From Amoebophrya sp. A120 (Eukaryota > Protista > Dinoflagellata), in the NCBI GenBank assembly GCA_905178155.1, contig CAJINV010000009.1:855415-919414 (forward strand): a stretch of 64,000 bases of DNA. Reading direction: 5' to 3'. Shown here piece by piece: positions 4,624 to 43,700 of this stretch. The notes under the pieces are model-generated. The model ran no database searches. It saw only the letters and a list, made by a program, of their open reading frames with translations, and was not told where the DNA came from. The number at the start of each line of letters is the position of its first letter. The stretch's first letter is position 1. A program made the translations under genes and the position numbers.

Positions 4624-5427
4624 TTTTGTCAGTAATGGCTGATAAATCGTCGAAATAGGACAAAATAAGATACGTCGTTGTAGTAACAAGGTTCGGGTTT
4701 ATCAAAGCGAATGCTTACTGTTAAGTTCTACAACTACAGGACGAATGTACTTTCTTATGTTTTTCTTTTTGCTTGGATGACGTTGATAAATCTCGACGTG
4801 ATTTCATCCGCTGCGAAAGAGAAAATCGAAGCGACAAGAATGCACTCGCTGGGTCGCGGCGACGATTTCTCTAATTCTGTCTCGACGTGGTCGTTTGTGT
4901 GATCAGGATCCTTTTTTTCATCAAGGGGAATAAAAACGAATCAGATCTTGTTCACGGGGGTGGTGAGAGACCACGATTACCATTTAGATGAAGCAAAACG
5001 ATACACCTTTCAATACATTCATAGTGCGTCGTCGTCAAGAGGCTAGAAGGTTTTTTAAGGTTTTCATCCCATCGGATTTCTTATCCTTGCAGTAGAAGCG
5101 AAGGACTTCATGAGGGAGCCCTACTTTTAGTTTTCTTTTACTATAGTCCGCCGTGATCTCTATCGCCGTTGCCGCATGCATCTTCAGCATCTCTCGACAA
5201 TAGAACATGTTCCCGACGGTTGTCGCCGTGCTGAGTACTATTGTACCAGCAGGAATTGCTTCTATCCGTATCTTCGCAAATAAGCTTGAATATGGCTTTG
5301 CTTTCCTTTCGAAGTAGAATGATATAAATGAATGGGCATGCCATTTGCATTTGGTGCGTTCCAGTTCCTGTTGCACTGATATAAAAAGGATCAAACTAGA
5401 TCATATCCCAACGCGCCTATGGATGAC

Positions 5428-15458: not shown

Positions 15459-18400
15459 TCAAAAAAATAAAGTAGGAAATTCAACTTCGTTCTCGTTTTC
15501 TTCAGAAACGTCGCCCTCCATGCCCATCTTTTTCGCCATATCGGTCCACGCGTCCAATTCTGCGGCAAATTCGCTGTCGGTCATCGTTTCTAGCGTTCTG
15601 TTAGAGGCCATGGCGGGTGACAGCTGCTTCTTCGCCAAAAACCGCTTCAAGAAGTGCAGACTCGCCTGGGGGCGGAACTGTGGCACCATGTGACCCGAGC
15701 CGTGAAAGGTCATAAACGTAACATTGTGCTCGTAGTTCACGACTTCTCCTCCAAACTGCGGACCCGCGTCGACCGCTAGCAAACCGGGCCCGAAGAGCGG
15801 AGCCTTGTCCTCCAGAACCGCCGCCGGTGTTGCGACCTGGTTGTTTTTTTTTTTGCGTTTGTCTTTCCTTCGTCCTCGTAGGCAATGAATGAACATGAAG
15901 TTGATCGTAGCATCGTAGTCCAAGGGCAAAATTGCACGCCCTTCTTTCTACGATAAAACACGCAAACATGCGAAAGTACACCACAGCATGGCGGTTCGGC
16001 GTGCTTAATCAAGGCAAAACGTGGAAAAAGCTGAAGCATTTTTTTTTTCCTAAAACAGCAGTGCCGCCCGGGGAAGAGGGGATGAGCAAACTTGTGCGCA
16101 CTTCTTTCTACGAAAAGCGAAAGCAAGCGAAAACACACCACAGCATGGCGCTTCGTCGTGCTTAATCAAGGCAAAACGTGGAAAAAGCTGAAGCCTTTTT
16201 TTTTCCTGAAACAGCAGTGCCGCCCGGGAAAGAAGGGATGAGCAAACTTGTGCGCACTTCTTTCTACGAAAAGCGAAAGCAAGCGAAAGTACACCACAGC
16301 ATGGCGCTTCGTCGTGCTTAATCAAGGCAAAACGTGGAAAAAGCTGAAGCCTTTTTTTTTCCTGAAACAGCAGTGCCGCCCGGGGACGAAGGGATGAGCA
16401 AACTTGTGCGCACTTCTTTCTACGAAAAGCGAAAGCAAGCGAAAGTACACCACAGCATGGCGCTTCGTCGTGCTTAATCAAGGCAAAACGTGGAAAAAGC
16501 TGAAGCCTTTTTTTTTCCTGAAACAGCAGTGCCGCCCGGGGACGAAGGGATGAGCAAACTTGTGCGCACTTCTTTCTACGAAAAGCGAAAGCAAGCGAAA
16601 GTACACCACAGCATGGCGCTTCGTCGTGCTTAATCAAGGCAAAACGTGGAAAAAGCTGAAGCCTTTTTTTTTCCTGAAACAGCAGTGCCGCCCGGGGACG
16701 AAGGGATGAGCAAACTTGTGCGCACTTCTTTCTACGAAAAGCGAAAGCAAGCGAAAGTACACCACAGCATGGCGCTTCGTCGTGCTTAATCAAGGCAAAA
16801 CGTGGAAAAAGCTGAAGCCTTTTTTTTTCCTGAAACAGCAGTGCCGCCCGGGGACGAAGGGATGAGCAAACTTGTGCGCACTTCTTTCTACGAAAAGCGA
16901 AAGCAAGCGAAAGTACACCACAGCATGGCGCTTCGTCGTGCTTAATCAAGGCAAAACGTGGAAAAAGCTGAAGCCTTTTTTTTTCCTGAAACAGCAGTGC
17001 CGCCCGGGGACGAAGGCATAAGCAAACTTGTGCGCACTTCTTTCTACGAAACGCGCAAACATATGAAAGTACACCATAGCATGGCGCTTCGGCCTGCTTA
17101 ATCGAGGCAAAAGCCGACAAGATGAAAGTCTCAAATGAAAATAGTCAAACTAGACAAACATCGCAGAAATATAATTTAAGTACTTTGTGATAAAACCAGG
17201 GTCGGTAGCCGTGTCCGTCCAGTTCTGCGAAGCCCAATCGCTCAATCGCGGTCCGCGTGCCCTCGTAGCTGACGCACGGGTCGGTATCCCCGTTCAGAAC
17301 AACGGTTTGTTCCAATTTGGGCGCGATGTCCCGGTAAAAGTCGATCATGGATTTCGCTCCTGGCTTCGCGCCCGCCCAGTTGCACGCCGCGTAGTCCTGC
17401 TCGTAGAGGAAGTGCACATCCTCGTCGTTCGGCCATGTCTTCACCGGCGCGTCGGTCACGTGCAGGGCCGCGCGGACCTCGGGGCTGTTCAGGTACTTCC
17501 CCATGTCACTGTCCTCCTTGCCCATCTTGTCCCCCGCGGGGGAAAACAACGAGTACGGGTTGATCCACTGCTTCGCCCAGCCCTGGTCGAGCTTGTTGCT
17601 CGCGCTTGTCTGGAACTTCCATATGGCGCTCTCAACTGTTACATTCTCAACTGTATACATGATTTGTCATGCTAAATTACCTTCAGCTTGACTATCAACG
17701 CCATCAAGCTGCTTCGCATGGAAAATTCTCAGACGGCCAAACAGGCTGAGAATCTGTGCCAAATCTGTCATGCAAGACGCGCAAGGTCCTTCCTTTCACT
17801 TTTGCCATTCTTGCATCACAAATTCATGTAACAGTTAAGAATGTAACGTTTGAGAAGTCCATATTCCGCCAGGCTCGCTTGCACTCAGCGCTCTCATGCC
17901 GGAACCGGTGCCCGGGACCCGAAATCTTGCTCTTCACGTGGTCCTTGTTGATCTCCACACTTGCAGGTGATGTTAATAACGCTGCTCCAGTATTTGCTGG
18001 GGCCGTGGTCTCGGTAAGGGCTACTTCCTGGTTTTGGTTTTGTTTGAATCTGGAGAGCAGCGTGGAAGTCGTAGAATTGATGCGTCGATTGAGTAAAGTG
18101 TAGAACTGTCCCTCCAGGAAGTGTTTCGGGAAGACGTTGGACAAGCTCGGACTGCGCGCTTGGCAGGTATTCCAGAGAAACTCGAACTCTTGGTCTTGGA
18201 CTAAGCCGTTCTTATCAAATGTAAAAATGTCTGGGTCTGGGACAAAGCAACCTGTCATGCTAAATCTGAAACATGTAGAAAACTGTGTTGCGTGATTACC
18301 AAAAGCTGTCCACATTTGACCTAATGATCGAGAGGCAGTTTCTTATGCAGGAAAGGCATGATAGAACACTCACAGAGCCTGTCATGCTATGTCCTACATA

Positions 18401-19413
18401 CCAGACCTCATGGGTCATGGAAAACCTGCATGACAAGTCTGGCACTCTGCCAGACCCAGACATTTTTACATTTGATAGTTCTTGTGAGTGTACCACAGCA
18501 TGTCCATCGAATCTTTCTGTGCATCGTCGTCGGTGCAGGGATCGCCCACCGCAACACCCTTCAAAGGGATCAGAACATCTTCACTTTCACTTGTTCTGCC
18601 AGCGTCTTCAGAGTTGGGCAGGTGTTTTCTACTCCTGTCGTCTTTGAACGCCTTTGCATTCCCGTCCAGAATCGCTTTCGCCAAGGTTGGAATGTAGACC
18701 CCGGCATACGATTCCCCGGTGATGTAGAAATCGTTCCCCGCTAGTGCCGGAAACTTGTTTTTGAAGAAGTCCACGAGCGCGGCGTGGCTCGCGGTGGCGC
18801 ACTGCTTGTCGGAGTTGTGGCAGGACTGGTTTTTGGCCTTCTGTACCTCACAATAACTGAACCCAACGCCAACTGGCTGCTCTAGGGCCAGCACGTGCGC
18901 GTGCTTGGTCCAGGAGTAGGGATTCTTCGCCAATTTGCCGTCCTTGTTCAGGAGCAAGGGCCCGTTCTCTTCGAGGAAACCGATCAACGAACTGGATCCC
19001 GGGCCGCCGTTCAGCCACAAGACGACAGGAATTTTACCGTTTTTGTTTTGCCGCGCAGCGAGACCGAGAGCGACTCCGGCGCCGGCCTCTGTAGTTTGCT
19101 GCTCCTCCGCCAGAGACACACCAACATCCTGATACTTTTCCGACAGGGCGAGCCAGTAATGTAAGCGACAATATCTTCCGTTTTTCTCCGTGTCGCACCC
19201 CTTCGTCGCGTCGAGGAAGCCGGAGTACTGCTTGGTTGGTGGCGGACCGTAATTCGGCAACGAGGACACCTCGTCGGGGTGGTTCGTTGGGATAGTTCCT
19301 GAAGTTGCTGGAGGGCGTACGGTGCGACTAGTCGCTGGAGATGGTGGCGCGGACACTGTAGAACTGTCGGCATGTACTGCACACGCACAGAGAAGCAGCG
19401 ACGTTTTCTTCAT
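15459..19413 (-). CDS. Serine carboxypeptidase (peptidase S10); 4 exons
   Basis: Signal peptide, QYSGFL, PVVLWLNGGPGSSS, EQPVGVGFSY, TGESYAG (catalytic Ser), NGDTD (Asp region), GSGHMVP (His). Two introner introns plus a GT-AG intron at 15837-17183. Confidence 0.95.
15930..17113. repeat. 156-bp tandem repeat, about 7.5 copies, inside a carboxypeptidase intron
   Basis: Identical phase at 16081/16861 and 16161/16941 (780 = 5 x 156). Central copies are near-identical and flanking copies are diverged. Confidence 0.95.
17622..17863. mobile_element. Introner, family D; TSD TTCCA/TTCCG
   Basis: Imperfect ~33-bp TIR TATGG...GTTACATTCTCAACTGT. Removal gives CKRAWRKFQTSASNK. Confidence 0.88.
18213..18477. 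mobile_element. Introner, family C; TSD GTTCT
   Basis: Perfect 28-bp TIR TATCAAATGTAAAAATGTCTGGGTCTGG. Removal gives WYTHKNGLVQDQEF. Confidence 0.93.
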
Positions 19414-20126
19414 TCTTTATCAAAGTTTAATGTTGTCAAGACACGATTCGGATTTCAACTCAGAACGCTGGGCTTGGGAAGATAAGATATGGACGGGAAA
19501 CGAAGAAGCGCCGACCTGTTGGGGAAGTGCGCCAGGCGTCACTGCAAACAATGATTGTCCGAGGTGATTCACATTCACTTACTACGTATCTATTAGTTCG
19601 ATATTTATCGCTCAACAAGGTGCAGGAAGACGGAGGATTTGGCTCTGCATCTGCTCGATAAGCGCAGCAAGTGCTCGTAAAGAAAAAAATAGCAGCTGTG
19701 TTCGTTTTTCGTCATACACCCGTTCTGCAGTGCAACACTCTTAAAAAGAAACCACACCCGAACAATCAGAGGCAAGGGCAGACGAAATTTGAGTTCCGCC
19801 CATCGAGCAACCGCACATCTGGATCAATGGCAGAGCGTTTCATCATATGTTTATTGTGTGTTCCAAACATGTGAGGTGGTGTACAGATCATGACAAAGAA
19901 CAAGTATATATAAGATTAAGATCTAGATCATGGATTCGTCTACTTATGTAGAGGCGTTGCATGCATGTTGTTGGGCTTGTGACTCCTGTTCCACATAGCA
20001 GCAGCACCAAGAAACAATCGAAATCGATCAATCAGAAATAGAGTCCTGCCAGCTCGTTCTGGTTCTGCGCGAGAACTACTATCTACAGTATTAAGACGAA
20101 TATGACCTGTGCTTCAGCTGTAACTA

Positions 20127-23100
20127 CTAGAGCGCCAACTCCGTAACAAGGGCATCGCGCCACTTCGCTACCGCCTTTACGAACTCGCGGTCTGTAAATT
20201 TCCGCATTCGTCTAGTTTTCGCTTCGATCGGACTCCCGCTGCCGTTTCCGTCCCGGGCGCTGGCCATATCGCTGCGCGTCAACTTTTGCAATTGCACAAA
20301 CAGGTCGGCACTGCTGGAAAACCGGAAGAGGTGCGGGTCGCGGCTGTAGTCCGAAAACAACACGCTCCAGTATTCAGCGTCATTTCTGAAAAACTTGGCA
20401 GCGGCCTCCTCTGTCTGCGTCATGTCCCCCCAGTGGAAAAAGGGCGACGTGTTTGGGGGGTACAGGTGGGTACCGTTCAGGGTCTTCTCGTCGATGAAGT
20501 GCCGTCGCTTGTGCAAACTGTGAATGCCACGGAAGAGGAAGAAGCGAAGGTGTTCGCGAACGGGGACAAAGATCGGGATGCCCATGCTGTAGAGCTCGTA
20601 GTACATCATGAGCGCGACGTCGTAAGGGTAAAACACCACTGCGAAAAACTTCCGCGCCATCTCCTCGTACGAGAGGCGGGGCCGCTGGTTCCGGACGTCG
20701 CTAAAAATAAGCTTCACGCTTGGTATGTCTGGGAGCCGTCCGGCGCCGTCTCCTGCGGAGGAAGAAGAAGACCACTTGCAGGTTTTTTTTTCGTTCGCCC
20801 TCTTTATCGGTACCTCAGGGAGCACTGAACCTAGTGCATTGTCCTCGAAAGGGGATTCTTGATCTTGTTTGGTACTACTTGAAATCGACGTCCTTTGTGT
20901 AGTTGACGTCGTAGTTTTTTCGTCGCGCGAGTCAGCAGGAACAGAAGTATCAGGTGAACTTGTAACTGTATCCTCCGTGTAGTACGTGAGCTGATTCAGC
21001 AAGCTGGCGGTATCCACGCAACTAAAGGGGCCCTTGTTGAGCAGAATGTGCACCTGGAGCACCTCTTTTTCCGGTGTGATCTCTTCGCCATCGGGCCCCC
21101 ACTCGCACTTCTTTTCCCGAAGATTATCGACTGGTAGATGATGTTGTTGTCCTAGTAAACTACCTGCACGAGCTACTAGCTGCTCGAAAACAGATCGGCT
21201 GGCTGGTGCCACCACGGCCCGCAGGCGACTTTTCACCTCGTTGAGCGGGTTGGACCACACGGCACCAGTGTGCTTCCCGAAAGCCCGGATATGGATGTGT
21301 CAGAGTTGAAATCGTCAAAGTTGAAATAATTTGTCATCGTATAAAATGCAATACACAAAGTCGTGACTCTATTGCAGAGGACGCACGGGAGGCAGATTAT
21401 AGTCCTGGTAAGGGTCAAAAGTTGGACTGCTGACTAGCATGACAGAAGGCAGCTCTTTTGCCCTAAACCGCAATACAGACTCGCTTGCAGGACCGGGAAA
21501 ATTTGTCATGCACCGACTACAAACTGCAGGTCTAACTGGCATCCATTTTATGCATGACAAATTATTTCAACTTTGTCGATTTCAAACCTGACACTCCCAT
21601 ACCGGATGATGGGCATGTAGAGCCCGGTTTGGTACCGGATCATGTGTGCCTTGTAGGGGTTGTAGGCCGCGACGAACGTGTATGGCGTTCTCAAACGTTA
21701 CATTCTCAACTGTGTAATGCAAGAATGGCAAAAGTGAAAGGGAAAACGTTGCGCCTTTTGCATTACAGGTTTGGAGCAGATTATAATGCTATCTAGCGCG
21801 TCGAGAAGTTGTCATTCGGAGAAGGCTTGATCGTGTTGAGAGTGATAGTGTTTTTGCATGACAAATTCATGTAACAGTTGAGAATGTAACGTTTGAGAAC
21901 GCCATAACGTGCGCGGCCGCTGCAGCGTCATCTCGCGAAACTTCCGGAACCACCACTCTCGCTCGCGCTTCCCCGTGATACCGGAAAGCAGGGGCTCGCC
22001 GATGTAAGCGATGATGGCCAGTTGCTCGTCGTGCGCGAACACGGAGCAGAGGATCGCGGGACTGGAGCAAATGAGAAGGTCGAACTTTTTCTCCTTCTTC
22101 TCCATCTGGTACTGCTCCCAGTGCGCCGCGGCCCGCTCGGCGAACTCGAAGAACTCCTCGATCCGCAGCTCGCCCACCACTTCCATGAAGCGCCGCGTGG
22201 GGCGGTACCCTGGCTCTCCGATCTGTGCGTGATCCTCGGCGCTAACCTCGCCCATCAGGGCGGCAATACCGACCGCATCTTTAGTGTTGGAGGAGCACGC
22301 GTCGCCGCCGCTGGTTTTACCCTTGCCGCAGTGTGCCGGGTCGTAGATTTCGTACACCGTTTCGACCGCTTTGTACTGGAGAAGATCCAGCGCTACGTGG
22401 TTCTCCAGCATGTACGACGCCTCTTGTGCCAAGGAAAAGTGCATTCCCACGTTGCAAACACGGAGGGTGTGCTGTTGGCGCTGTTCAAGCGTCAGTCCCT
22501 GCGGGGGCACGAAGTGGCTGTGTGCAAAAATCTCTTTCACCGAGAGGCCGCGGAGATTTGCTGCGCTCAGCAGGCCGGGAGCCAGTAGTTTGGGCTGATT
22601 GTAGTCAAAGGCGGGCGTTTGCGTTTCCTTTTCTATCGCAGATTTGTGCGGCTGGAAGAGAGTTACTGGACGCAATGCATTGGAGGCTTCATCTTCGGAT
22701 GCGAGCGCGAAAGCACTACTGGCCGCATTTTCCGCGTCGATCGGTGCAGGAGGGGATTCCTTACCTTCGGCTGCACGTGGAACCGCGCGAAAAGAACGGC
22801 TGTGTTGAAACAATTCGCTCTCGAGTCTGTCCATCATATCGTAGACCGTCCGGTCATTTATTGAGGAAATGCGTTCGCGTTCAAAAATGGTTCGAATTTC
22901 ATGATCATGCTGCTCGTCCGCATTTCTATTGCTACTACTTTCATCGGAGGGAGGGGAGCTATCACGGGCCGCGTTGTGGTCTCGGCCTCGGCCGTGCAGC
23001 AGCAGCACGTCGTAGAAGAGTTGCAATTCTTGGTCGAGAGTCCCTTCCTTTTCCATGTCCTCATCTGTTGCAGCATTGGCTGCAGTAATGACTTCCCCGT

Positions 23101-24502
23101 TGACAATAAAAGCAGGAGGATCGTCTTCTGATGAAAAGGTTGTCGTAGCTGCTTCCATTGTGTTCGAAGCTGATGCTCTTTCTGTTGTACTTTCAGTGTC
23201 TGTGTCTTGATTGTCTTCTACTTCTTTTGTTTTTGCGTCTCTAACAGCTTCACTCTCGTCGGTGCTGGTACTAGTACTGGTAGCCGTGGGCGAGGAGGGG
23301 TCTTTCTTTTCTACTGCTGAGGTAGACGACGTCCCGTTAAAGACCTGTTGCCAGACACTTAACGTTTCCTCCTCCTCAACTAGCAGGTCTGCGACGGCCG
23401 AGAGGTCAGAGGCAGCGAGCCCCCACCTGCTCGGGCTGATAACATCGAAGCAGGTATCGCGCTCCTTCGAGAGGAGATGGAGTAGGTTTGCCCTACAGAC
23501 CCGGCGGATGGCATCGGGCTTTGCGAACTTCACACAGGAAAACCGAAGCTGGAAGTCGGGCAAAAACTTGTCCTGAAGCGCTGAAAGCACTTTGTCGGCC
23601 GACCAGGAGGGTGCGGCGGTATCATTTTGTTGATCAATTTCGTGTTTCCCGTTTTCCTCAAGTGCTGGCGTCTGGGTGGAGTGGTTCGAATTCGTGGCGG
23701 CACGACTTCTGGCTCTCGTGAAGTAGAAGTCTGTGTCTTCCGCACTGCCGCTTGTAGTGCTTAATATTCCCATTAACGACCGCGCGATCCGATGTGATCT
23801 GGAGCGTCGCCGGGGTATTATCGCCCTGGCTATCCGTTTCCGATCTTCCTCAGGTGTGGCTGAACTCTCGAAGTGGTTGTCATCCAGCACATACCGCTCG
23901 AGCGCAGTTCTACTGTCGAAAATAGTTGTTGCACTCAGTGTCTGACCTGCTTGATTTCGATTTCCTCTTTCGCCTACTGGCGGGACAGAAACTGGCATCA
24001 CGCCTGTGACTTGGGCCATCACTGCCACTTCACCGTAAGGTTTCTTCTCTGTCCCGCTGTCTTGATCCTCGTCGCCTTTTGAGTTTGTCTGGGTATAGTC
24101 GCGACGAGCAAATTTGGCGAGCAAGTCCATTTTTTTCTGCACGTGGTCGGCCCACAACACGATGACGGTGGTGGCAAGAATGCCGTGGGTACAAAAAACC
24201 GCGTGTTGTGGGAATCGCGCGCCGAGGCTCGCAGCCTTTTCCAGAATCGCGCGGTCTGAATTGCGTCCTTTCCAAAAGTGCACCACGGCATTGGTCCACA
24301 TGCTGGAAGCCTCAGCGCAAAGACCCTGCTGCAGCGGGGCAGTCCCCTCGGACCGAAGCATCTGTTGCAGCACCTGAAAGCCGCGCGGGTCCGCACTGCA
24401 AGTGAGATAAGGCGCGGCATCGTCGATGTCGCGGTAGGCTCTCTCGTTTCGTGTATACAGACGAAAGACACGACCTGGGTCAACAATACAACTGTGGCTC
24501 AA
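20127..24502 (-). CDS. Large hypothetical protein with a glycosyltransferase-like C-terminal region; additional 5' exons likely up to about 26608
   Basis: Removing two introners joins QRPRTFVAAYNPYKAHMIRYQTGLYMPIIRAFGKHTGAVWSNP. The segment FFAVVFYPYDVALMMYYELYSMGIPIFVP resembles GT-B sugar-binding segments (inference). A signal-peptide-like exon lies at 26393-26608. Confidence 0.65.
21290..21601. mobile_element. Introner, family E; TSD CCGGA
   Basis: ~48-bp imperfect TIR TATGG..GTGTCAG..TTGAAATCG.CAAAGTTGAAATAATTTGTCAT. CCGGA at 21285-21289 and 21602-21606. Confidence 0.92.
21681..21906. mobile_element. Introner, family D (opposite orientation to the 17622 copy); TSD ACGTG
   Basis: Perfect 33-bp TIR TATGGCGTTCTCAAACGTTACATTCTCAACTGT. 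ACGTG at 21676-21680 and 21907-21911. Confidence 0.93.
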
Positions 24503-27171: not shown

Positions 27172-30100
27172 CTAGAGCACATATTTCGCTACGTCTGCTA
27201 TGTCTTTGATTTCCTGGCCTTTGTACCAAAATGGCAGTTCTAGTCCTGCTGCTGGCGGCGGAGGCGGCTGCTGTAAGTAGCACTTAACTTCGTCGCTCGC
27301 GGGTACTCCAGGTCCGGCAACCAGTCCAGGTGGGACATCTGGCGCACGTGCGACGTCTGGCCGTGTTTCACCGGCTGCTACCCGCCGCACCGCTGGATCA
27401 GAAGACCGTGGCGGCGCAACCTTTTTCTTCCCGGTATTGCGTCGATCGTCCGGAGCAGCACTGCTCGCTTCTCTATTTCTTGCGCTACTTCTCGCGCAAC
27501 GTTGATGGTGGGGCGCGCTCGTGTCGATCTCGTTGATGCGCGGAACTGTATGGAAGTGTGAGGTTCGAAATTGACAAAGTTGTCATGCACAAAATACAGA
27601 GCACAAAGTGGAAGTGCCTGCATCGGCGGGGAGCAGCAGCAGGCAAAGGAGGCCCAATATTAGAATTAGCCTTTTTGGGGTTCTTGGCGGGAATAGATAT
27701 AAAGTCGCAGGTAGGAGTAGGGCTGCGAAGGAGCATGACATTTATTTTTGATTACAGTCCCACTCCTTCTTCTGCAAGCCCCCTGCATGAGAAACTGGCC
27801 CCCTGGCCAGGAAGGTATCTGGGTCATCGGGGGCTTCCGGATTCGCATTCAAAGCTTATCGCAGGAGCCTGCGGGCCGCCGCGGGCTCCACCACTTCCCC
27901 GCGGCCCTAAAGGGCCGCGGACAACTACTGTCGCCCGCGGCGGCCCGCAGGCTCCTGCGATAAGCATTGAAGGCGAAATCCGGTCTGCTATTTCGCAGCG
28001 GGGCATCCTCTCTAGCCCCCTGCGTGACAAACTGGCCGCCTGGCCAGGAAGGTATGCGGAAAGCCGAAAACCCGCGAACCCTTCCGGGCAACCAAAATCG
28101 GCCATTTCAGACGCGGCGGAGGTCCCGAATTGGTGCTCACAACCCCGGCCAAATCGGGATTTTGGGACATGCCTCCGCGCGCTTGTAGTGCGTTTTTTTT
28201 TTCCCAATCGCGATGGTACGGCGCAAGCGCGCGCCCGCCGGACCGCCCTTGGCGGCCAGTTTGTAAGCCTGCCGAGGGTTCTCGATTTTTTTCAATTTTC
28301 GCTCTTTTTTCTGGTTCTTAGGTGGCCGAAGGGCTCTGGACATTTTCACCGCCCGCAGATGACTGGCAGTTTTGAAGCCTGCGGAGGGATTGCGCTTTTG
28401 CGCAATTTTTCATCTTTTTTCATTTTCCAAGTGGCCCGGGCGACCTGCACATTTTTACCGCCCGCATCTGACTGGCAGTTTTCAAGCCTGCGGAGGGATT
28501 GCGCTTTTGCGCAATTTCTCATCTTTTCTCATTTTCCAAGTGGCCCCAGCGACCTGCACATTTTTACCGCCCGCATCTGACTGGCAGCTTTGAAGCCTGC
28601 GGAAGGATTGCGCTTTTGCGCAATTTCTCATCTTTTTTCATTTTCCAAGTGGCCCGGGTGATCTGCACAAAATCCGACGATTGCTTCCCCCCACGTTATA
28701 AAGCAATTTTTCGCCATTTTTTTCCAACTTTTCCCAGTTACGAAGCGGCCCAAGGCTTCCGAACAGGTCGCGGGCCTGCTGCTCCAACGCAGCTGGCCAG
28801 CGGGCGGAGCAAAAAATAGTCCGCCTCTTTTTCAGATACTAAGTGGGCCAGACCGCAAAAATGCTCTTTTTTCACCTTCTCCCGCTTGGTTTCTGCCGTT
28901 TTTGCGTCATTTTTGACCTCCTGGCCATTTTCCCATCTGGTCCGCTTTTTTTCCCTTCTCCCGCTTCATTTCTGGCCATTTCCCTGACCTTCACGCCTCC
29001 CGGCGGTTGCCCTATATGGTAACGGCAACTGCCTTCGCGCTGCGTTTGCTAAGCAATATCGCAAGCGCGCAGAGCGCGCGCGCCGGCTTCGTGGGCCGGC
29101 GCGCGCTCTGCGCGCGCGCGCGCACGCATTTGGTTACCAGATAAAGTCGCAGGTAGGAGTAGGGCTGCGAAGGAGCATGACAAAAGCAGCCTCCTCAGCC
29201 ATCACTTTCCGGCCGGGCAGGCTTCCCGGTCGAGCAAAAGTGATGGCCAGGAGTTCCATGGCCATCGCTTTTCGCTCGGGCAAAAGCAATGGCCAAGAAG
29301 AGCTTCTTGGCCGTCGCTTATTTGCTTTTGGCCATCACTTCCATCCCGGCCGGGAAAAAGTGACGGCAGAGAGCCCCTTGGCCATCGCTTTCCGGTCGGG
29401 CAAAAGCGATGGCCCGGAGCTCCTTGGCCATCACACACTTCTCGCTCGGGCAAAAATGATGGCCGCGAGCTCCTTGGCCATCAGTTTTCGCCCGGGCGAG
29501 CAAAGCGATGGCCAAGAGCGCCCTGGATGGCCATCACTTTTCTTTGGTGGCCGGGCAAAGGTGATGGCCGAGAGCTCGCTGGCCATCATTTTAATTCCGC
29601 CCGCAGGGCAAAGGGGATGGCCAAGAGCTTCGTGGGCATCGTTTTTCGCTCGGGCAAAAGTGATGGCCCGGAACTCCTTGGCTATCACTTTTGGCTGTCA
29701 CTTTCCGGGCGGCCAAAAGTGAAGCCAGCCGGCCGCCAAAGCCTCCCCAAAATAACCCTTGCGGCTGGCCCCCTTTGCTTTGCTTGCCAGGCGCGCAAAA
29801 GGGGCTGACGCCGGGCCGGCGTCCTGGACGCCGGACCGCAAAAGCGCTAAAGCGGCGAGGCCGCTAGGGCAAGCGCAGGCCGGCCCAGGCGCATCAATCT
29901 CCCTCGAGGCAGCCCATGCACAAAGCAAAGCCGCACCAGTCCCGCGGGGGGGCGCGCCGGAAGGTCGTGTGTGGGTCCGTGTAATCTGTCCTCGCTATGC
30001 TTTTGCTTTCTCTTGCGGCACCGCCTCCCCCTTCTTCTGAGGCGAATACTGGTGCCTTTTGTGCCTATCTCTGTCTGTGCCATGCCTCCACCTTCTAACC

Positions 30101-33100
30101 AAGCATGAGCGTTTGCGCTCCATGTGTAGAATTATTTTTCAAGCTACTAGCCCCAGCCGGCGTCCTGGACGCCGGCGTCTAAGGGGCTAGTAGATATAAA
30201 GTCGCAGGTAGGAGTAGGGCTGCGAAGGAGCATGACAAAAGCAGCCTTGAGCTTGACCTTGAGCTTGACCTTCCAAGGCCTGCTGAGAAAATAAAGGCAT
30301 CACTTCCCAAAGCATTACCCGGCAAGCACCCGCTTGCACCTAGTTCGGCCGGGGGGACTAAAAACCGGACCGCAGTCGCTGCGAAGCGGCAACAGGTGGG
30401 TCGCCACGTAAAAGAAAGGCCAACATGCGCTGCAGACACAAAGCGCAAGACCGTCGACGGCCCGGAGGGCCGGCGACGAGAAATTTTCGCCCATGCCAGC
30501 TACTCGACCGGCAAGCGCAAAAACACAACCGGCCGAACGGGCATGGGGAGAGTCCCGAGGGCGAAAACACCGCGCCCGCGACGAGGAAAGCGCTATCTTT
30601 CTCACTTTAGCACCGATCTCGTCAATTTGTGACGGCGATCAGAGTTCGGTCAGATTTAGGTCAGAAATCCAGAATGTAATATAGGGACAGGATTTCTGAC
30701 CCAAATCAGACCTAATTCTGACCTCCGTCACAAATTCTGAACAGAGGCCATGATCTTCGTCACAAATCGGATCAGGCCCACTGATCTTCGTCACAAATTG
30801 TTGATCTCCGTCACAAATTGTTGATCTTCGTCACAAATGGTTGATCTTCGTCACAAATGGATGATCTCCATTTCAAATGGCTGATCGCCATTTCAAATGG
30901 GTGATCTCCATTTCGAAAGGCTGAAAGCCATTCAAAGTTGACGACTTCCATCCCAAATCATCCCACATCAGGCTACTGCCACATTTGCCATCCCCAGACC
31001 ACCACGTAGGCCTCGACCTTGCTTCGGCGCCTAGCCAAAGCTGAAGTCTATGGCGCCCGCACCAGGGTAGTGCGCTGCTCCATGTACCCACGTAGGGCGT
31101 AGTCAACGCATTACCGCGGTGAGGCTGTGACGCGGAAGAGAATGACCCGAAGGCACTGCTGAGATAGCTCCTGCGACGCCACCGAGTGCATCTGAAGAGC
31201 GCCCCACTTTCAAAAACCCTGTCCGTCACAAATCCGTCAACATTTGGTCAACTTTCTATTCTGCGCCGGGTGGTACAGCGTTAAAGGAGTAGGGCTGCGA
31301 AGGAGCATGACAAAAGCAGCCCTCCTTGCCCCAAACAGCACGACACCCTGGATCTGCGTGCTCCCAAAATCCGTCATGCGAAACTGTGGCTCCAACTGGT
31401 AGTTGTTGTATCGATTTTATACATTGCAAGTCGTTTCAACTTTATCGATTTCGAATCTGGCACTCCCATAAACTGATCCGTTGTAGTTAAACCAGTTGTG
31501 AACGAGGACAGCGAAGTGGGATAGATTTTGACTTGGCTTTCTCGGAAATCTTCCAATTGGTTTTGACTTTGACGTTTCCGCTGTCACGAATGTGCTCACG
31601 ATCTCTTCCAATTGCTTTCCCTTCTGCCCGAACAGAATGTTGTGGACCTTCTTCCACTGCGTCGACGAATGAAAGAGTGCCTTGGCGTCTTATCAAATGT
31701 AAAAGTGTCTGGGTCTGGAAGAGTCATGCTGTTTTTGCATGACACAGAAGGTCTGGCATGGAAGCTCTAGCATCACAGGTTCCGAGAAGCCTCCGCAATG
31801 CCGAATCCGCATGACAAGCCCCCATTTTGGTGACAGAAAGTGAGCAGCCTTGTTGCCTATGCATCAGAGATTTTTGTGTGTTCTGAAATGCGCATCACAA
31901 GTTACATCCTTCCAGACCCAGACACTTTTACATTTGATACGTCCGGCGTCGGAAACATAATCAGAGCAACGGCTATGAACTGCAGATCTGCCTGAGTTTC
32001 TCTGAAGGAATAAAAGCAAAGCTCTCGTCAGCGTCATGTTGAATTGTGCACGATCAAGACGGCGCTTCCTGTTCCACATGATGACTGCATTTTCATCGCA
32101 CGAAGAAAAAACGCTGCGCATTTCTTGGTCAAGTAAAACAGATTTTTGTGGAGTAATTATGCAAGGGAAGCACTGCAAGTCCTACAGGAGTCTCGCTCCA
32201 GTTCATTACTTACCCAGACATGTTTGCAATGCATAGCGGCGACCGGGCCGCGAATATTCCACGAGGACCGATGTCGTGAGCGCTCGTTGGCAGCCTGAAT
32301 ATTGCCCAGAAGTCTTTCCAACATTCCGCGAATTTGAATTTCGTCTTCAACTGCGAGAGGGTTTCTCTCGATGCCTTGACTTGCTCTGAAGGCGTCTCTC
32401 TCTGATATTAGTTCGGGAAGAAAAGCCAACATATCCAGTGCAAAAGTATCGTACTCGTACTTTACTAATTGCAGTCATCATGCATGACAGATCTACTTTC
32501 TAAGGGAAAACAGCATCACAAATTGCATTTTTGTTCTTGAGCAAATTTGTCATGCAGTTTATACTAGTACGATACTTTTGCAATGCATAACACACGTTTT
32601 GCAGCAACTCCACCGACATGCCAACCAGGACCTCCGGCTTCAATTCGGGACCCGCATGCTTGGGAGCCGCATACTCGCGAAGCAGTGCGCGCAAGTAAGA
32701 AGCTTGCTTCTGACGCTTGTTTAGTCGATGCATAGCCTTTTCGTTGCGCAGGATACTACTAGAAAGAAATCCCGCCACGTGCTGACCATTTTGATTCAAC
32801 TCTTCCAGCAGATTTTTTTGGAAAAGTTGAGTTGCCGTCTTCGCGGCAGGGCCCCACGGTTCCTCTGATAGCGTAAGGTGACTGAGAAAGAGCATGCGAT
32901 CCTGATCGGGGTCCGCCAGGAAGTTGTTCAGAAACACATCGCGCCAGGCCCTGGATGGGTCACTCTCAATGCTTGTGCGCAAGACATCGTGTGACGCCAA
33001 CGTACGTATTTGCTGTGCATCTTCAGCAAGATCCTCCATGCTTGTGGTTCTGGTCTCCGACGGCGAAGACATGCAAGCGGCTCCAGAGTGTTGCTCCACA

Positions 33101-34938: not shown

Positions 34939-37121
34939 CTTAAAGATCCTGCTGGTAGTAGTTGTGTCCTTTCTTATCGCGAAGGCGGCAAACTAGACCA
35001 CACTCCCTTCTCAATACTTCCTTCGTGACGAAAATTTAAATAAGGTAAGATTGCGAGACTTCCACCTTGCTTAAGTTCCTAGAAAACTTCTTTGATAGTG
35101 TTGAAGAAAAAGAAATACAAGAACAATACAATTACTTGCGAAATCTCTATGTTTGTGTTTCGTTTGTGCGTCTGGCGCTTAATTTAATTATGTTGATACG
35201 ACATTTACTTTTACGCTAGTTTTAATTCAAATTATCACTACTTAGTGCAATCTTTTATGAATTTTTACCTTCGATTTTCTGCGCATGCAGATGCAGTACT
35301 TGTGATACAGATATCTCGATCGGATACGATTTACGCACTACTTGCACTCGTTTTGCTTCTAGTATTAAGCCGTATGTGTAAGTTTGGTTACTTAAGTTTT
35401 TTTTGAACCGATGATGTTATCTTTAAATTCTAATATCCTACGGGATTTGAACCGTTGTTCCTCAGTAGGACCATCAACTGCACACACACTGTAATAGTAT
35501 GGAAGAAGTTGAAATGCTGTTGGTGCTTTCTCATATTCCCTTGTGCGTCGTCAACAACATGTGTCTGCGTGTACTTATCGGTGTGTGAAAGTGGTCTAGC
35601 CGGTGTGCAAGTGCGTATGAGCCGGTTGATCCTCATTTCTTTGCGAATGATTCCGAAAACATTGACATTTAGATCATTTGTGAACTTCTTTCGAAGCATT
35701 TGCGACCCAGTTGATCCAGATCCTTCTTGACATTCATATCGTAGCTGATGCTGAATTTGCATGCTGGCATTTTTCCAAGAACCTGAGAAGTCCAATGCCG
35801 CGACGATCTGGCACGACCTTAGCATTGAGCGTTTTTTTGTACACTCGCGGAACAAACAAGCGTAGGAGGTGCGACCTTCTCGTATCTGTCCATGTCGCCG
35901 TACTGCTCTGCAGGGGCGATTTCATTGTTTTTGTCTTTCTGCACATTGCGAAAACAAAGTAAGGCGAGACAACGAAGACGTCCAGTTACAGAACAGTTTC
36001 TTCACTTCAAACCCTAAACCCATAACTCATCATACATGATCAGACTGCACTCAGTCCCATTCCAAAACGCGCAAACAGGAGGAAACGTCCCCTCTGCATG
36101 CGACTGACTTTCTTGGTAGCAGCGCCCTGGGTGTGTGTTCACAGCATTGCACTTTTTTGCAAATGTAGCTTCTTCCATCGCCACCACCTCACTCTCCCCA
36201 TCATCATCTTGCTGCTCAAACTACGACTACTACTACTACTTTACTACAACTGTAACTGTTTCATCGCGTTCGTCGAATAAAGTCTTCCTTGCATTTGGAC
36301 TTCGTCTTCGACTTGGGGCGTTGAAATTGGTGGGCAGCTTTCTGCCCCCCAATTTGGGCTCAAAACTGAAGCCACGCACTCGCAACTCCAGGATCGGCCA
36401 GAAAATGGTTTGTCGCGTTTCGCGTTTAGAATTAGAAGTCACTCTTTTTCAACAGACAGCAAAACCGGAAACCTGGAAAGCCTTCAAGTATTTGAAGAAT
36501 ACTTTGAGAGCCCTAACAACTATAAACTTGGAGATCGCTGGCGTGAATTCTCGTATGCGATGTAAAGCGTACTACTTCTACTATCCTTGTTCACCCGCAG
36601 GGGCTCTCAGTTCAGGTAATGAGCTGGGCGGTGGTCCAGGTCCCTGAGTGTCTGCCTTTTTGGGAGATAACACCCAGCACCGGCCCTTCTTCCATTCCCG
36701 AGTTCTCACAAAAATCAAGACCACCGACTTGCTGCTCAAAAAAAAATCCACATTATACATTCAAATTGAAATTCGTACTACTATCGCGGTGACAGTTGTT
36801 GCTTTCTCCTCGTCATTTGAATTTATTCGTGCATGCTGCAACGCGCTTATCAATGTCAGCGTTCAAATTGAAATTGTGTTCACATTTTGAAACGCCTCCT
36901 TAAGGATACCGATACGGATAGGACGGTTCCTCTGCATGTTGATGGCGATGGCTCTCTTACAACTCTTTAGAGTACTGCTTCTACGTCCAGCACCGCACCT
37001 TTGATATTCTGAAAGAAACATGTAAACGAAAGACCACAAAGAGCGGTAGAAAAAAAACGAAAATGAGTCTGCCGGTGGTCCACCAAGTTCATCTTGAATG
37101 CGTTCACTACCGATGTCTTCT

Positions 37122-39221
37122 TCAAGTACTTTTTCTTTTCACACGCCTCGGATGTTTCTTGAAATGTTTTCTATTTTTCCATTCCTGCTTGCGCGTACGT
37201 TTGCTTTTGCAATCGAGCGCACCACCAACGATTTCTCGCACCTCCCGCTTCGATTTCTCGTCCAAATCACCCTTGTAGATTTCCTCTAGCGCGGCGCGCA
37301 CTTTCTGCAGATTTTCCCTGTCTTCGGGGCCGAGGGTAATCGAAGAAAACTTTTCGCGCAAGAGGTACCAGGGTAGCGCGCCAATGGCTTGCGGGTAAAT
37401 GTGCTCCATCTTTCCTTCTGACTGCATCTGGGTGTTGTGCTCGTTCAATCTCTCGTTCGCTTTCCGCCACTCTTGCAGCATCCTCTCAGCATCAAGATCG
37501 CGCAGCAACCCGACTGCCGACCGCGCGTTGTAACTCGGGCCGGCTCGGCATCTCTGTTGCTCATTCCAAAGCGACGCATGTGGAATGCCCGGACCGGGTG
37601 GAAAGATTTCTGGAACTACAACGCTATCACTTGATAGGAGGCTAGCGTCGCGGTAACGCTCCGCCATTTTCTCTTGATTTGTGTGTCCCCAAAACATTAA
37701 GACAAAGTTTCCGTCAGGTGGCGTTACCGCCAGGTCGGCGCCCTCCTCGCGATGCAGTTTGTCGGCCAGACAGGCAGTAGGGATAATGTGCGGCGCACCA
37801 CGGGCCAAAGGTCCGTGTTGCAAACTCGTCTCTATATTGCACGGAACTGGCGCCCCGGAAGCATCGCGCGCCGTAAAATTGTTTACACCCTTGTAGGTTT
37901 GCGCGTTCGCAATCACTAGCTGGCGCGCAACATTGCCCTCCTCGTTGCTTCGAGGTACCCACCACGAGACTACTTGACCCAAAGCCCCGCCTGCGGCACC
38001 GGTCCGGCCCCGGCGCTGGCCTGGAGATGAAATCCCCGCTGCATTGAACCACTGTGCATTCGCGGCGTAGTTGTTGTCCCTGTGGAAAAACGGCACCCTG
38101 AAACTTTTATCGAAAGGAGTAATCGAAACGTCCTCGCCATCCTCCCAGAGGACGTGGCTTAGTCTCGCTGGTGGCAGCGCGATCAGAAGGGGGGGCGCAC
38201 TGCCACTGTGAAAGCTTTCTCCTTCTTCACTTCCGCGGCGATTATTCGCAGGCTGCCGTGCAGCAAGAGCGTCCGTGATCGAAGCTGCAATGTTCTGTGC
38301 GTGTGATGTGAGCCAGCCTTTTGCATACTTTCGAGCCGGTGGATTATTTTTTGGATAGCCAGCAGGTATGAAGTTGTCACCCTCCAGGTTGTCAGGCAGC
38401 TCTATGATGTCTCGGGAAAGTAACGCCCATCCCTGCGTAGAAAGGTTTCCAGCGACTTCTGCGATGTCAGAAGTCGCATTGTCCGCAGAAGACAACACCC
38501 GCGCACCGAAATCTTGCAAAGCCTTGTCGGCAACGAGCTTGGCGGCTTTGGTCGGCATCATATCGTTTTCTGTGTCTACCTTAGACGCGTACTGAAGGTC
38601 GTGGAGTCTTCCTTCGCTTTGTGTAGCGCCGTACGGACCCAGACCACCACCTATAAGTAATTGTATATTCCATTTTACGCTGCTCAACCAATTAACTTAA
38701 CAAATATTGTTTACGACTTCTACAACTAGACCTGGTTCTACATACTAGCTGCTGCTGATGTGCATTGGATTTCTAGCACGAAATGAAAATGATTCGAGCT
38801 CCAGTAGCTGCTTCTATCAACTTGACATCTACCCAAGTAACACCCTCATCCTGAGATAATATTTCAGGATGACGGTGTTACTTCTGTGAAACATATTATT
38901 TGAGCAGATTCATATACCAGTAGGGCAGCTGTCCGTCAGTCTCAGCTGTGGGGGCTCGTCCTCCCTTAGACCAACATTAAGACGTTGTTGAACGGCTAGT
39001 TCTTGTAGCCCCGCGATGCCTGCGGCGACAACAAAAATGGCTGTCTGCTTGCCCAAACAACCGCTCGCTTCACGTTTCCCCGCAGGCCTTGACGGAGCCC
39101 GAAGTTGCGTTCGGAGAGCTGCGGTGAATTGGAACATTTCACAAAAACTGCCGACCGCAACGATAATGAACCAAAAGTAAATCGCACGCCAGCGGACTCC
39201 TTGTTGCGCACTCATTTTCAT
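37122..39221 (-). CDS. Secreted/type II membrane hypothetical protein; 2 exons (GT-AG intron 38651-38917)
   Basis: The N-terminal hydrophobic exon 38918-39221 joins the 521-aa ORF as CPTGGGLGPYG. Confidence 0.65.
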
Positions 39222-40749
39222 TTTATTCGTGCGCTGCCAACCTCAACTCTTTAAAATTGAATAGTTGCGCAGTAGTTTCTACTTGTTCTGCTTCTGACTT
39301 TTTAGGAATAGCAAACAAGACTGAGTCAAGGAAACCGAAACGATACGGATACTAAGCCATGGAGTACAATGATAATCGTTGTGCTAGAAAAAACTGAGAA
39401 GGCACGAGCGAGACGAAAGGCCAGGTGCGCAGTAGAGACGAGCGGGTGCCAAATAACAACTTGAGTAAGTACCTCGTTTGAGCTTTTACTTGCAGAAAAG
39501 CATTATATTGCAATGTAAAAAAATCAAAGTTGGATTTTGAGTAGGTCACTGTAGCCGGAGCGAACTGCGAGATTTGGTATGCTTAGCCTGTCGCGTTGGG
39601 TTGAAGAGAAGAAAGCGAAGCGAAAATAGACCCTAGCTAGAGCGGACGATTGAAAAAACATTTATAAACTGGACGATTGAGAACTCTTTGTCTTTCGTCT
39701 GGCTCGGGACAATGATAATTTTGTTTTTATTGATTATGGTTACCGACAACACGAAAATTCTTCGTTCGTATATCGGGATCCGATCGACCCCGCTTCAAAA
39801 ACTCACGCGACCGATTTCGTGGTTGATTATGATCGAGGCGTCTTTGTATTTGGCCGAGTGATTATGATCACGTGACCGACGAGTTTTGGTTGGTTATGAT
39901 CGGAATGTGTATCTTTTGGAAAAGTGACAGAAGCTGATCCTGATTTCATTTTCATTGATGACAGCGAAGCACTGCAATTTTTATGGCATCGCCTGATATT
40001 AAGCACTGACATTGACAAAGTAACTCGTCCATCCTCTAGATCCTGAGTGAAGATGGGAACTTCGTCTGCCGTTTCTGCAAAATCTTGACAATAGTTCACA
40101 TCCTGGCGCCCCCTCGCGACGTGCTGCAATTTCCAATTCTCGGCGCACGCCTGGAGCCGTGCCTCTGCTTCTGCACCGTGCAGAAAAACAAAGCTGGCAC
40201 GTTCCTGTCAATCTGATTCTGAACAGTCGTCGCGCGTAAGCGCACAGTACTTGTTATACGCACACTCCTTCCATGTTAGTCTTAGTCTTCGTCTCTGCTG
40301 GTTCGAACTAACAATGCGCTCGACTTGCACTTGCGCAGTTGACAACAGGCACAAGCAGGATTAGGATTACGAACAAAGACAAATCATGTCCGTGACCTCA
40401 CTACATACAAATAATTACATATACATCCGTACCACTGGCGTGCTTTCGATTGCTCCTACATCATAGCGATTTATTACAGAATAGTTTTATTTCTAATTTC
40501 ATATTTATATCAAGTAATATTAGTATACGTTGATGTAGTGTGGGTTTCGTTTAGGTTACATATAGCAAAGTCCTCGTCTCAAACTGAGGGGCAGATCGCA
40601 CTCGCTCTCGCGGTTGTTACATCATAATTACATGTTTTTCTTTTGATTTCGTGTGCTTAGAGTTGCTGAGCATGAAGAGCACCAGCTCGCTCGTTCAAGT
40701 CCGTGTTACTTCGTTCCCCGATGTTCTTCGTCATTCGTAACACCTTTTT

Positions 40750-43700
40750 TTATCCTCCAGCTAGTCCCTGGTCCTCATCTTCGTCGACGCGACCATTAGT
40801 CCGGCTGTTCTCGCCGCGAGTCATCGTGCCTTCGCCTTCGATGTCTTCGTTTTCGCCAGCGCCGCCTTTTCTCTTCTTTTTTCGCTCACGAAACAGTTGC
40901 CATTTGAACGCAAGCTTGCCCTGCACCGGCATATCCTTCATTTTTTCTGCGAAGCTACCACTGGTCGTGTTCTCACTGTTCTCGACTTTCTCCACATCGC
41001 TCGGAAGGTAGAGCGGCAATTCGTCCTGCTTTTGCAAAAGGCACCCGCCCTTCGCGTGCTTCCGCACCTTCAACCGGCACTCGCCGAGCAGCACGGGCTG
41101 TTTCTGGGTCAGTTCCGCGGTGAAGTCCAAATCGTTCTCGTCGTCGTTGGTTGTTCTGCCCGTGTCGTACACTTGAACCATATGCATTGCAATCGTATGA
41201 TCTATCGTAGTGGTGCTTGGTAGAACTTGCAATGCAAATTTTCTCAGAACACAAACAGCAACAGGGAAAAATGGAATTTGCCATGCTGACCCAGCTTCGA
41301 GAGCAGATTTCTCATGCATAACTGCAATTGAAGAAGTAGTACCACGGGTACGATAAAAGATATTAGTTTTGCGCCGGATAAAACACCGCCTCCAGTGACT
41401 TGCCGTCGTACGGAATTCGGGTCGTGTAGCGAAAATACGGCTTCGTCGTGCCGGAGACGACCTGCGATTGCCGCGACGCATCGCCCAACTTAATCACCGC
41501 GTAGGTGGAGGTACTCTTTAGCGAGTGTGCGCTATCCAAGAAAAAAACATTGTAGGTGTGACTTTTTTATTTTTGGAGGAACAGCATTGCAAATTTGTCT
41601 GGCATGACAGCAAAAACCTGTCATGCGCAGATAGTACGTGAAAACGCCCTTTAATGGACCCTACGATGCATGCCAAGCATGACTGACACACGCAATCATC
41701 TTGAGTGTTGCGCATCACAAATTTACACTAACAACGTTTTTTTCTTGCATATGCGCGCACCACCTGGACCAGCGCGTGGTCCTGTTTCATCACCTCCTGT
41801 TCGTAATCCTCCGTTTGCGTGTGCTCGATCAGGTCACGGGGCACCGTATAATTGATGTCACCCGAGGACATGTTCTTATTTGTTCCACCGTCCAGTCGCG
41901 ACTTCTTCCGCTCTTCCACTTTCACGGAGAGGTTCCTGGCGGCGAGTTTCGCGTTGAACAAGGAAAAGAGCTCTTTCGTGCGGTCAACTACACCGGTCGT
42001 CGGGGACGAGGACGTTGTATTTGCGACCGCAGTAGAGGACGACGATGCACCCGCGGCGGCTCCTGCGGCCGCCGCCGCAGTTGCGCCGGCAGTTCGTCCC
42101 GACGGTGACGTCGGCGATACCGTGTCGTCCAGCTCCTGACGCAAGCTGGACATCATGGTGGCGGGGGAAATGTTCTGGTCCCGATCTTCAGTCCCAGCGG
42201 GGGAGTTGGAATCGTCCCTCGTCATGTCGAAGTACTTTGCGGCTCCTGCTGCTGCAGTTGTACTAATAATCCCCCCTTGACTGTTCGCGTTCTTCAACAT
42301 CTGGTCACTGGCACGCCCCGCGTTCAAACTTCTCGTCTATGCATTGCAACGTAGTCGTATCGGAGGAGTGGGAATTGCATTTTTCTATAATTTTTTCGAA
42401 TGGAAAAAGCGAATCTGTATTTGTGATGGTGCATGAGCTTGGAAACCAAATCTCTCATACTGTACTGCAGTTTGTACGAATACGATATCGATGCTGTTGC
42501 AACGCATACTGTTATCGCATCCTCCTCGTCGTCCAGCTGAAAGAGCACCGTCTTTGCCTGCTCGGCCGCGTCTGCTCGAAGCTGCGAGAGCGGACTGCTG
42601 CTGAACGAACGCGGGGGGCTGTTACGGTAAATTTTCGCGATCTCCGACTTGGTGATCTTCTCTTCCAGTGTAGGTTCCTCTTCGACCACAACCTGCGGCC
42701 CCAAAAGCGGAGCGGTCTGCTCGCCCTCCGCGCGGGCGGTCAGGGAGCCCACCGGATGGTGCCGGTGGCGACGGGACTGATGACGTTTTGCGTTTCCATT
42801 TTCGTTTTTTCTTTTCAATTTTCTCCTCCAGAAAGGCAGACCAGAGCAAAGAGCTTGCAGCCGAAATTTTGTACTCAACATTTGAAGGAATTGAAATTAC
42901 TTAGTATGTGAAAAAGAAGATCATGTGAAAAGATATGAGCCATGAAGGAAACAGATCCAGTACGGCTTCTACCGTTGCAGCAGAAGCTCCTGCTTTTTCC
43001 GCACCGCTACCGAAGAAGTGCCACGCCAGCCCAAGGATCAACAAGCTGCACAACCCACCAACCATTTGCACGAGCGCCGTCCTGGACAAACAGATGCTGT
43101 CCGTAATCTTGAGAAAAGACGCATGAATTTGCCTAGAGCTTTAACACCCGTTAGCATGAGAAGTGGTGAATTTGTAGTGAATTTTGCATGACAAATTGCA
43201 GATGAGTCCGCCGGGACATTGTCCCTCTTGGCCTTCTGGGAAGTGGGTTCTGCACACCGCAAAAGTCAAGGCTTATGCGGCGGGCAACTTCTAGACATGG
43301 CCTGGGTGCCGTTCTTTGGCCATGTCTATTCGTCTCCCTGTGCTCGTATAAGAGCACTGCAGCAGCCGCGGCAAAGACGCCAAAAAGACAGTGCTGCGAA
43401 GCACATGCAATCAGGCAAGAAGGCGCGAAAGCAAGGGCAAAAGGACCAGGCCAAGAGCTCTGACGCGTCTATCCGGCAGGCGCGTGAGCTCTCCCGGCCT
43501 TTTCGGCAGAATATAAAGGGGCTGAGGGGGGCAGCAGAGGGCGCTTGCCTTTTCCCCTCGGCCCCACTTCCCAGGGCCTATTTGCGGACTTCCTTGAGCA
43601 CTTTTCTGCGCTAAAGTTTGCTTATCACGGTCGAAAAGGGGCGCCCGGTGAATTTTGGGGTGAATTTTGAAAAGGGCGGCGGTGAATTTTGGCCTCCGGC

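Follow-up and report, generated by a model that had tools for sequence, protein, structure and literature searches.

Inverted-repeat elements lying either way round in coding exons of Amoebophrya sp. A120 are removed at the RNA level

The introners of the dinoflagellate Amoebophrya A120 have been described as elements of about 240 nucleotides (nt) that start with TAT, continue with some seven variable bases and a run of A, are flanked by 5-bp direct repeats, give non-canonical splice junctions beginning NT, and lie in co-oriented genes intermixed with GT-AG introns (PMC7789003). In the portion of that account available to us the word orientation is applied to genes only, and splice positions relative to the hairpin are described as variable or unknown. 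A120 introners have been assigned to several transposon classes (PMC12130899), and the methods of PMC9860276 allow for opposite-orientation copies. Here we analyse a 64,000-nt stretch of Amoebophrya sp. A120 (assembly GCA_905178155.1, contig CAJINV010000009.1, positions 855,415 to 919,414), referred to as the window, whose coding exons hold 16 inverted-repeat elements that very probably belong to this published system. Their repeats combine TAT with a run of A, a direct repeat flanks them, they fall into repeated families, and in seven of them a non-canonical junction is backed by RNA-type contigs; the median length, in the larger sample described below, is 260 nt. They also display the features of a transposable element of the miniature inverted-repeat kind (MITE), namely terminal inverted repeats, a target duplication, short length and no coding sequence.

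Introners that insert with a target duplication and act as introns in either orientation are known from Polarella glacialis and, as cited in the same work, from Aureococcus (bioRxiv 2020.10.14.339549). The Polarella elements, however, need G[TCA]-AG sites supplied by element or target, a rule that the elements studied here do not follow, and classes 6, 8 and 10 of the Polarella/Aureococcus elements are reported to be biased to one orientation, whereas we find no overall bias (bioRxiv 2020.10.14.339549). The non-canonical MITE introns of Fritillaria likewise have inverted repeats and are handled by an adapted spliceosome, but their target is always TAC and their preferred ends are AG-AC and AG-AT, while in our elements target and ends are free (PMC11282704). 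Earlier publications have covered the elements as such, as well as introners of other algae that work in both orientations, but the two-way property in Amoebophrya is apparently unreported: the literature covered, which included few subscription papers and parts of others, yielded no statement for Amoebophrya on how the elements are oriented, on symmetry between the strands or on a register that is fixed. What is apparently added to the A120 system is unbiased two-way insertion, an absence of strand asymmetry, a register in which the cuts fall 1 nt before the 5' TAT and 4 nt after the 3' ATA (−1/+4), and an internal motif shared among families.

Orientation of the elements in the window

By scanning for inverted ends that are bordered by a 5-nt repeat, and by reading the sequence, we compiled the 16 elements, all of which run from TAT to ATA, carry 5-nt target duplications and interrupt coding exons of minus-strand open reading frames (ORFs). 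The original prediction had placed all host genes on the minus strand, and this holds for six of the six host ORFs, which are intact and 533-1281 codons long. For each of the 16 elements, deletion of the element plus 5 nt restores the longest stop-free frame, while retention of the element or an error of 1-2 nt gives a shorter one (hereafter the ORF test). The minus strand also carries all ORFs examined between 900 and 60300, which recalls the long blocks of co-oriented genes reported for Amoebophrya.

Families D, B and E are present both ways round. D1 (17622..17863, 242 nt, target copies TTCCA/TTCCG) interrupts a serine carboxypeptidase gene (PF00450, the single match among ten proteins scanned against Pfam), and D2 (21681..21906, 226 nt, target duplication ACGTG) lies in the opposite orientation. 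The two-way claim had started from a family-D interior word said to lie near the left end of one copy and, as its reverse complement, near the right end of the other. Indeed, this 23-nt word occurs a single time, at 21719, and its reverse complement a single time, at 17792. Aligned with reverse-complemented D1, D2 is identical in 185 of 245 columns and scores 244, against 104 in the same orientation, and once 35 nt had been trimmed from each end of both elements the local score was 150 opposed versus 34 same (shuffle null 17±2). E1 (18213..18477, target duplication GTTCT), in the same gene as D1, and E2 (31691..31939, target copies CGTCT/CGTCC) are also opposed (trimmed interiors, 75 versus 25).

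The claim about family B was confirmed as well. TATCC is the left end of B2 (12165..12321, target duplication TGGGC) and B4 (32432..32589, target copies CAACA/ACACA), and its reverse complement GGATA is the right end of B5 (41181..41380, target copies AACCA/AAACA); B4 scores 94 against reverse-complemented B5 versus 34 in the same orientation, and 46 versus 22 with 50 nt trimmed (null 16±3). Judged by trimmed interiors, B1 (11590..11760, target duplication CGGGG) is oriented as B2 and B4, and the other way round lie B3 (12946..13107, target duplication CGTGT), B5 and the B-like element H (42338..42508), whose target copies match at two of five positions. Because B3 and H have reverse B-like interiors but read TATGC at both ends, the TATCC end is an unreliable marker of orientation. 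C1 (2059..2273, target duplication CGCCG) and C2 (41533..41751, target duplication TGCGC) agree in orientation.

Removal from RNA and retention in DNA

Two stretches of the window, 17150-24600 and 31300-45200, were compared with sequencing runs. The RNA data are assembled, unstranded contigs from one sample (X3-X6), whose RNA type is predicted and is backed by skipped GT-AG introns; the DNA-type run X1 comes from a different sample and is possibly the source of the window.

RNA-type contigs lack D1, D2, E1, F1 (21290..21601, target duplication CCGGA), B5, C2 and H, and in each of these seven cases the skip equals the element plus exactly 5 nt. Record 9 of X3 is contiguous across 17616/17864, skipping 17617-17863 with D1, and across 18207/18478, skipping 18208-18477 with E1; its loose end matches an exon near 15807-15834, so that the GT-AG intron of the same transcript (15837..17183, minus strand) is skipped as well. 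Record 10 of X3 fits exact loss of F1, which also passes the ORF test, and of D2, the 73 letters between its two outer pieces equalling the middle exon. B5 is missing from contigs of X3, X5 and X6 (joint 41175->41381, 205 nt skipped). The X5 and X6 contigs in addition pass over C2 (41527->41752, 224 nt), H (42333->42510, 176 nt) and the GT-AG intron of their common transcript (42777..42972, minus strand, 196 nt). Thus two hosts have a minus-strand GT-AG intron skipped by the same RNA-type contigs, a control for both strand and RNA origin. The X4 contigs showed no joint over 31300-45200, and over 17150-24600 the raw RNA runs X9 and X10 placed one and zero reads, respectively.

In X1, by contrast with the RNA-type contigs, the elements are retained: X1 crosses all eight exon/element borders of D1, E1, F1 and D2 at a depth of 38-47, with genes and spacers evenly covered at about 40, and among the 15 joints listed of 53 there is no precise excision. 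Since X1 keeps elements that the RNA-type contigs lack, removal takes place at the RNA level, and elements of both orientations are removed in this way from intact ORFs.

These observations speak against excision from DNA, which the original prediction had kept as a second option. The MITE-derived internal eliminated sequences of ciliates are exonic too and are removed precisely with one direct repeat, but from the somatic DNA of two-nucleus cells, whereas here the elements stay in DNA (bioRxiv 2022.05.02.489906). Loss of an element with one target copy would by its nature be blind to orientation, the RNA status of X3-X6 is predicted, the DNA and RNA runs come from different samples, and contigs drop rare variants. 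Besides the borders in X1, however, the contigs without elements are also without GT-AG introns, the sole empty site among 227 elements is a paralogue or diverged allele (see below), and a lineage with one nucleus would be expected to lose excised copies for good. We consider precise DNA excision very improbable.

A further challenge to two-way removal would be that reverse copies stay unspliced or sit in pseudogenes. RNA cover is almost nil at E2, B4 and the neighbouring element G (31974..32235, target copies ACGGC/GCGGC), where joints were not seen, and removal of B1, B2 and B3, as of B4, is judged from the ORF test only. Yet both orientations of family D and the reverse copies B5 and H are removed, and the host frames are intact; this possibility is largely refuted and, in our view, scarcely credible.

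The remaining elements pass the ORF test, all in minus-strand hosts: C1, E2, G, J (12358..12679, target duplication GCCGG) and F2 (27549..31470, F-type ends, target duplication AACTG). The C1 host is colinear with a paralogue near 3780-4627 that lacks the C1 insertion. F2, at 3.9 kb, interrupts a 1069-codon frame common to E2, G and B4; its target duplication is perfect, and besides nested repeats it contains four 52-nt repeats, 109-nt and 20-nt arrays, and hairpins. Only a small part of F2 falls within the two stretches compared with runs, and an RNA joint was not seen for it. A 2.7-kb TAT…ATA element with target duplication AAGAC and many internal hairpins lies upstream of a gene at 60529-63265. 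In a search for a transposase partner, three of the 23 ORFs over the 3.9-kb and 2.7-kb elements, two in the former and one in the latter, were scanned and gave no Pfam match. Between two copies of a 60-nt exon segment, at 43060-44371, is an inverted-repeat intron of 1.19 kb whose 5' end, TATGTC, is intact but whose 3' end has decayed; a weak RNA joint (43125->44312, a 1186-nt skip with 36 letters on its short side) keeps both copies of the exon segment in frame. Of the canonical introns, that of the carboxypeptidase gene is filled by a near-perfect 156-nt tandem array of about eight units (15884-17119), and both it (15837-15870) and the intron in the transcript of B5, C2 and H (42777-42830) have an A-rich rather than pyrimidine-rich 3' tract with AAACGCAAAA shortly before AG.

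Orientation counts and strand signals in a larger sample

Matches to the family-E end were obtained in at least 136 loci from metagenomes, together 0.49 Mb and belonging to a related organism, a sample that over-represents family E. These loci also contain four long candidates for an autonomous partner. Applied to these loci and the window, the detector returned 451 unique candidates (452 in real versus 25 in shuffled sequence). Host strand could be called from the restored ORF in 226 of the 451 and the other 225 were dropped; removal of a window hairpin at 27857 and addition by hand of C1 and B5 gave a working set of 227 elements, 212 from the loci and 15 from the window, with RNA support confined to the window elements. 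Pairs of elements in one locus received concordant strand calls in 446 of 466 instances, codon usage bore the calls out in 185 of 203, and perfect 5-mer target duplications flank 153 of the 212 elements from the loci.

All ten families, which take in 204 of the 227 elements, hold both orientations. Relative to host strand the counts are 43:45, 11:14, 14:10, 14:4, 12:5, 5:4, 4:4, 3:4, 3:2 and 2:1 (combined p = 0.41), and same-family pairs in one locus and on one strand are oriented alike in 22 cases and oppositely in 26. Inconsistent pair signs numbered 52 of 1836 within the largest family. A bias in the 14:4 family (p = 0.03 alone) did not survive ten tests. The elements thus insert both ways without overall orientation bias.

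A single empty site was found among the 227, in the comparison of locus L103 with L040. Flanks that are 92% identical to those of the filled site, and a different insertion of its own, mark it as a paralogue or a diverged allele, and its single target copy means that the duplication arises on insertion and is not a product of excision. The two homologues (L040 4372-4607 and L103 263-561) carry a family-D insertion in one and, about 30 nt away, a family-E insertion in the other.

We looked for asymmetry between the sense and antisense strands of the 227 elements at several levels. Base composition is balanced (A 16258 versus T 16174; G 12684 versus C 12667), no strand-specific 4-6-mer survives multiple testing (with 120-814 tests per length, the best p was about 0.003), folding predicts a terminal stem for 170 sense and 172 antisense strands, and the sense fold is the more stable in 122. 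In registers where the repeat itself does not dictate the letters, neither G at +1 nor AG at the 3' end is enriched. When all registers are allowed, G[TC]-AG occurs in 15 of 227 elements versus 8 on the antisense control, and G[TCA]-AG at the −1/+4 register in 6 of 227. A target motif was sought in a larger set of 285 elements and none was found. A TATG preference at the 5' end, suggested by five of six elements in the window, was rejected (29 versus 28 in 212; 45 versus 43 in 285).

The original prediction had held that removal does not depend on strand-specific internal signals. This stands insofar as none was detected in 227 elements; the reasoning behind it does not, in that two-way tolerance on its own excludes neither a branch point nor a pyrimidine tract. 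Nor does it exclude a spliceosome, because the repeats put an N|TAT start and a TTTT…ATA end on the transcript either way.

One internal motif, GCATNACA(AA), stands out. With 11.5 copies per kb inside elements versus 0.8 outside, it is 14-fold denser within them, is common to unrelated families at about three copies per element (window examples at 17660-17672 and 21857-21868), and peaks 40-60 nt from the ends. Its TNAC core resembles the branch consensus, and its presence on both strands could in principle let a strand-specific branch site serve an element in either orientation. This, however, seems to us an improbable account. Sense and antisense copies number 319 and 344, in 175 and 174 of the 227 elements respectively, which shows no sense-specific retention; moreover, the last 70 nt before the 3' end hold a sense copy in none of 24 family-B elements, and four reverse members of another family have none. 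In family B the motif points inward from both ends, and it is also present in the nested repeats of F2. We take it to be more likely a transposase-binding site, the simpler explanation, than a branch point. It is possibly a site for one common trans factor.

Cut register and candidate splicing machineries

The target copies of H match at two of five positions, and its joint, which permits no slide, fixes the cuts 1 nt before the 5' TAT and 4 nt after the 3' ATA; the intron is 42334-42509 and reads GTATGC…GACG. The B5 joint permits 0-2 nt on the 5' side and that of D1 0-4 nt, both compatible with 1. On the transcript, then, a symmetric element is cut in a polar register, as shown once and with two further junctions compatible. 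The published non-canonical pairs of A120 (PMC7789003, Table S4; see below) agree with this register. Of the symmetric, structure-guided RNA excision originally proposed, the RNA level stands but the symmetry of the cut does not, the distance from arm to cut being 1 nt on the 5' side and 4 nt on the 3' side. Cuts at −1/+4 remove 5 nt in addition to the element, and so the frame is restored even where the target copies differ. In-frame stops at mismatched target copies were tried as a test of the register, but none of five cases was decisive, their frames being unresolved.

On balance we lean towards splicing guided by the hairpin, in which an altered spliceosome recognises nothing but the paired TAT…ATA ends. 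A transposase, of the cut-and-paste or copy type, would make cuts staggered by 5 nt and insert the elements in either orientation. The arms would then pair in the RNA, and the cuts would be measured from the base of the stem, which would take over the role of the G…AG dinucleotides. Because flipping leaves both ends unchanged, with the N|TAT start and the TTTT…ATA-N4 end kept, orientation would be invisible to such a machine. The catalyst, the least sure step, would be the U2/U6 spliceosome, which we favour because the register places U at +2 followed by A at +3, the arrangement of GUA donors. These two bases apparently recur in both A120 and A25 despite different repeat ends: in Table S4 of PMC7789003, nine of the nine commonest non-canonical pairs of A120 begin NT and nine of nine of A25 begin TT, the A25 repeats starting TTA. 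Nearly all spliceosomal proteins and the U2, U4, U5 and U6 RNAs are reported from A120, with no U1 RNA found (PMC7789003), and a relative with canonical introns keeps U1 (PMC12005148).

A different machine could use the same ends-only ruler, with a separate endonuclease and ligase cutting at the hairpin base and joining the exons, as proposed for the nonconventional introns of Euglena. Those introns lack GT-AG, have terminal triplets that pair and lie at set distances from the cuts, further away on the 3' side, are flanked by direct repeats and are of probable MITE origin (PMC12501133, PMC11282704); the geometry suggested here by one junction, N1TAT…ATAN4, resembles theirs in a predicted paired triplet at fixed spacers but differs from N3CDG…CHGN5-6|R (PMC12501133), and the Euglena-type purine after the 3' cut is not preferred here (116 of 212 versus a background of 54%). 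Because the +1 base and the 3' dinucleotide are random, Euglena-like machinery is a close rival, and the lack of strand asymmetry and the tolerance of a two-of-five target match also suit it. Euglena introns have been reported as circles (PMC11282704), and U1 RNA was found in neither A25 nor A120 (PMC7789003). On the other hand, the apparent recurrence of U at +2 and A at +3 in two strains whose repeats end differently would favour a spliceosome, and a near-complete spliceosome including U1 proteins is kept, though the 35% of introns that are canonical would explain its retention. We know of no candidate enzyme. A second, spliceosome-independent mRNA splicing machine, convergent with that of Euglena and measuring 1 and 4 nt from a hairpin base closed by TAT/ATA, is a possibility that we take seriously while thinking it rather unlikely.

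Several observations weigh against the altered spliceosome that we favour. First, +1 is G in 86 of 285 elements, close to the 28% background of the flanks, and AG is not preferred as the final dinucleotide; a random terminal dinucleotide is hard for standard second-step chemistry. Second, G·U pairs are not in excess over the first 12 arm positions of copies pairing without gaps (65 versus 60 for A·C), so that the data give no sign of selection for pairing in RNA over recognition of the ends in DNA. The terminal repeat has the consensus TATSnnnTGnAAAA, with T, A and T at 0.98-0.99 and A at positions 11-14 at 0.76-0.91, and its three terminal pairs mismatch less often than the target copies (2.3% versus 6.9%, n = 285, p = 8e-7), which suggests that the ends are kept after insertion, but the detector scoring favours an intact TAT and possibly inflates this conservation. 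Stricter keeping of U at +2 (0 versus 4 deviations) vanished in the larger set of 285 (2 versus 4) and was discarded. The −1/+4 register rests on one uniquely resolved junction, the element at 43.1-44.3 kb (1186-nt skip) loses, by the end assignment used, the element plus 7 nt and not plus 5, and Table S4 of PMC7789003 may have been shaped by aligner preference inside repeats. Finally, nothing in the data points to a lariat, a branch point or dependence on the spliceosome, whose role is putative.

How Amoebophrya removes the more than 60% of its introns that lack GT-AG is an open question in the literature. The present data narrow the requirements in cis to the two ends: neither a preferred target nor a biased orientation nor a strand-specific signal in the interior was detected, and the register is −1/+4. 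Should a second splicing machine prove true, such transposons would be silent at any coding site either way round, which would explain their tens of thousands of copies. More generally, if the ends alone suffice, insertion into an exon is cheap in either orientation, and this would explain the scale of the invasion.

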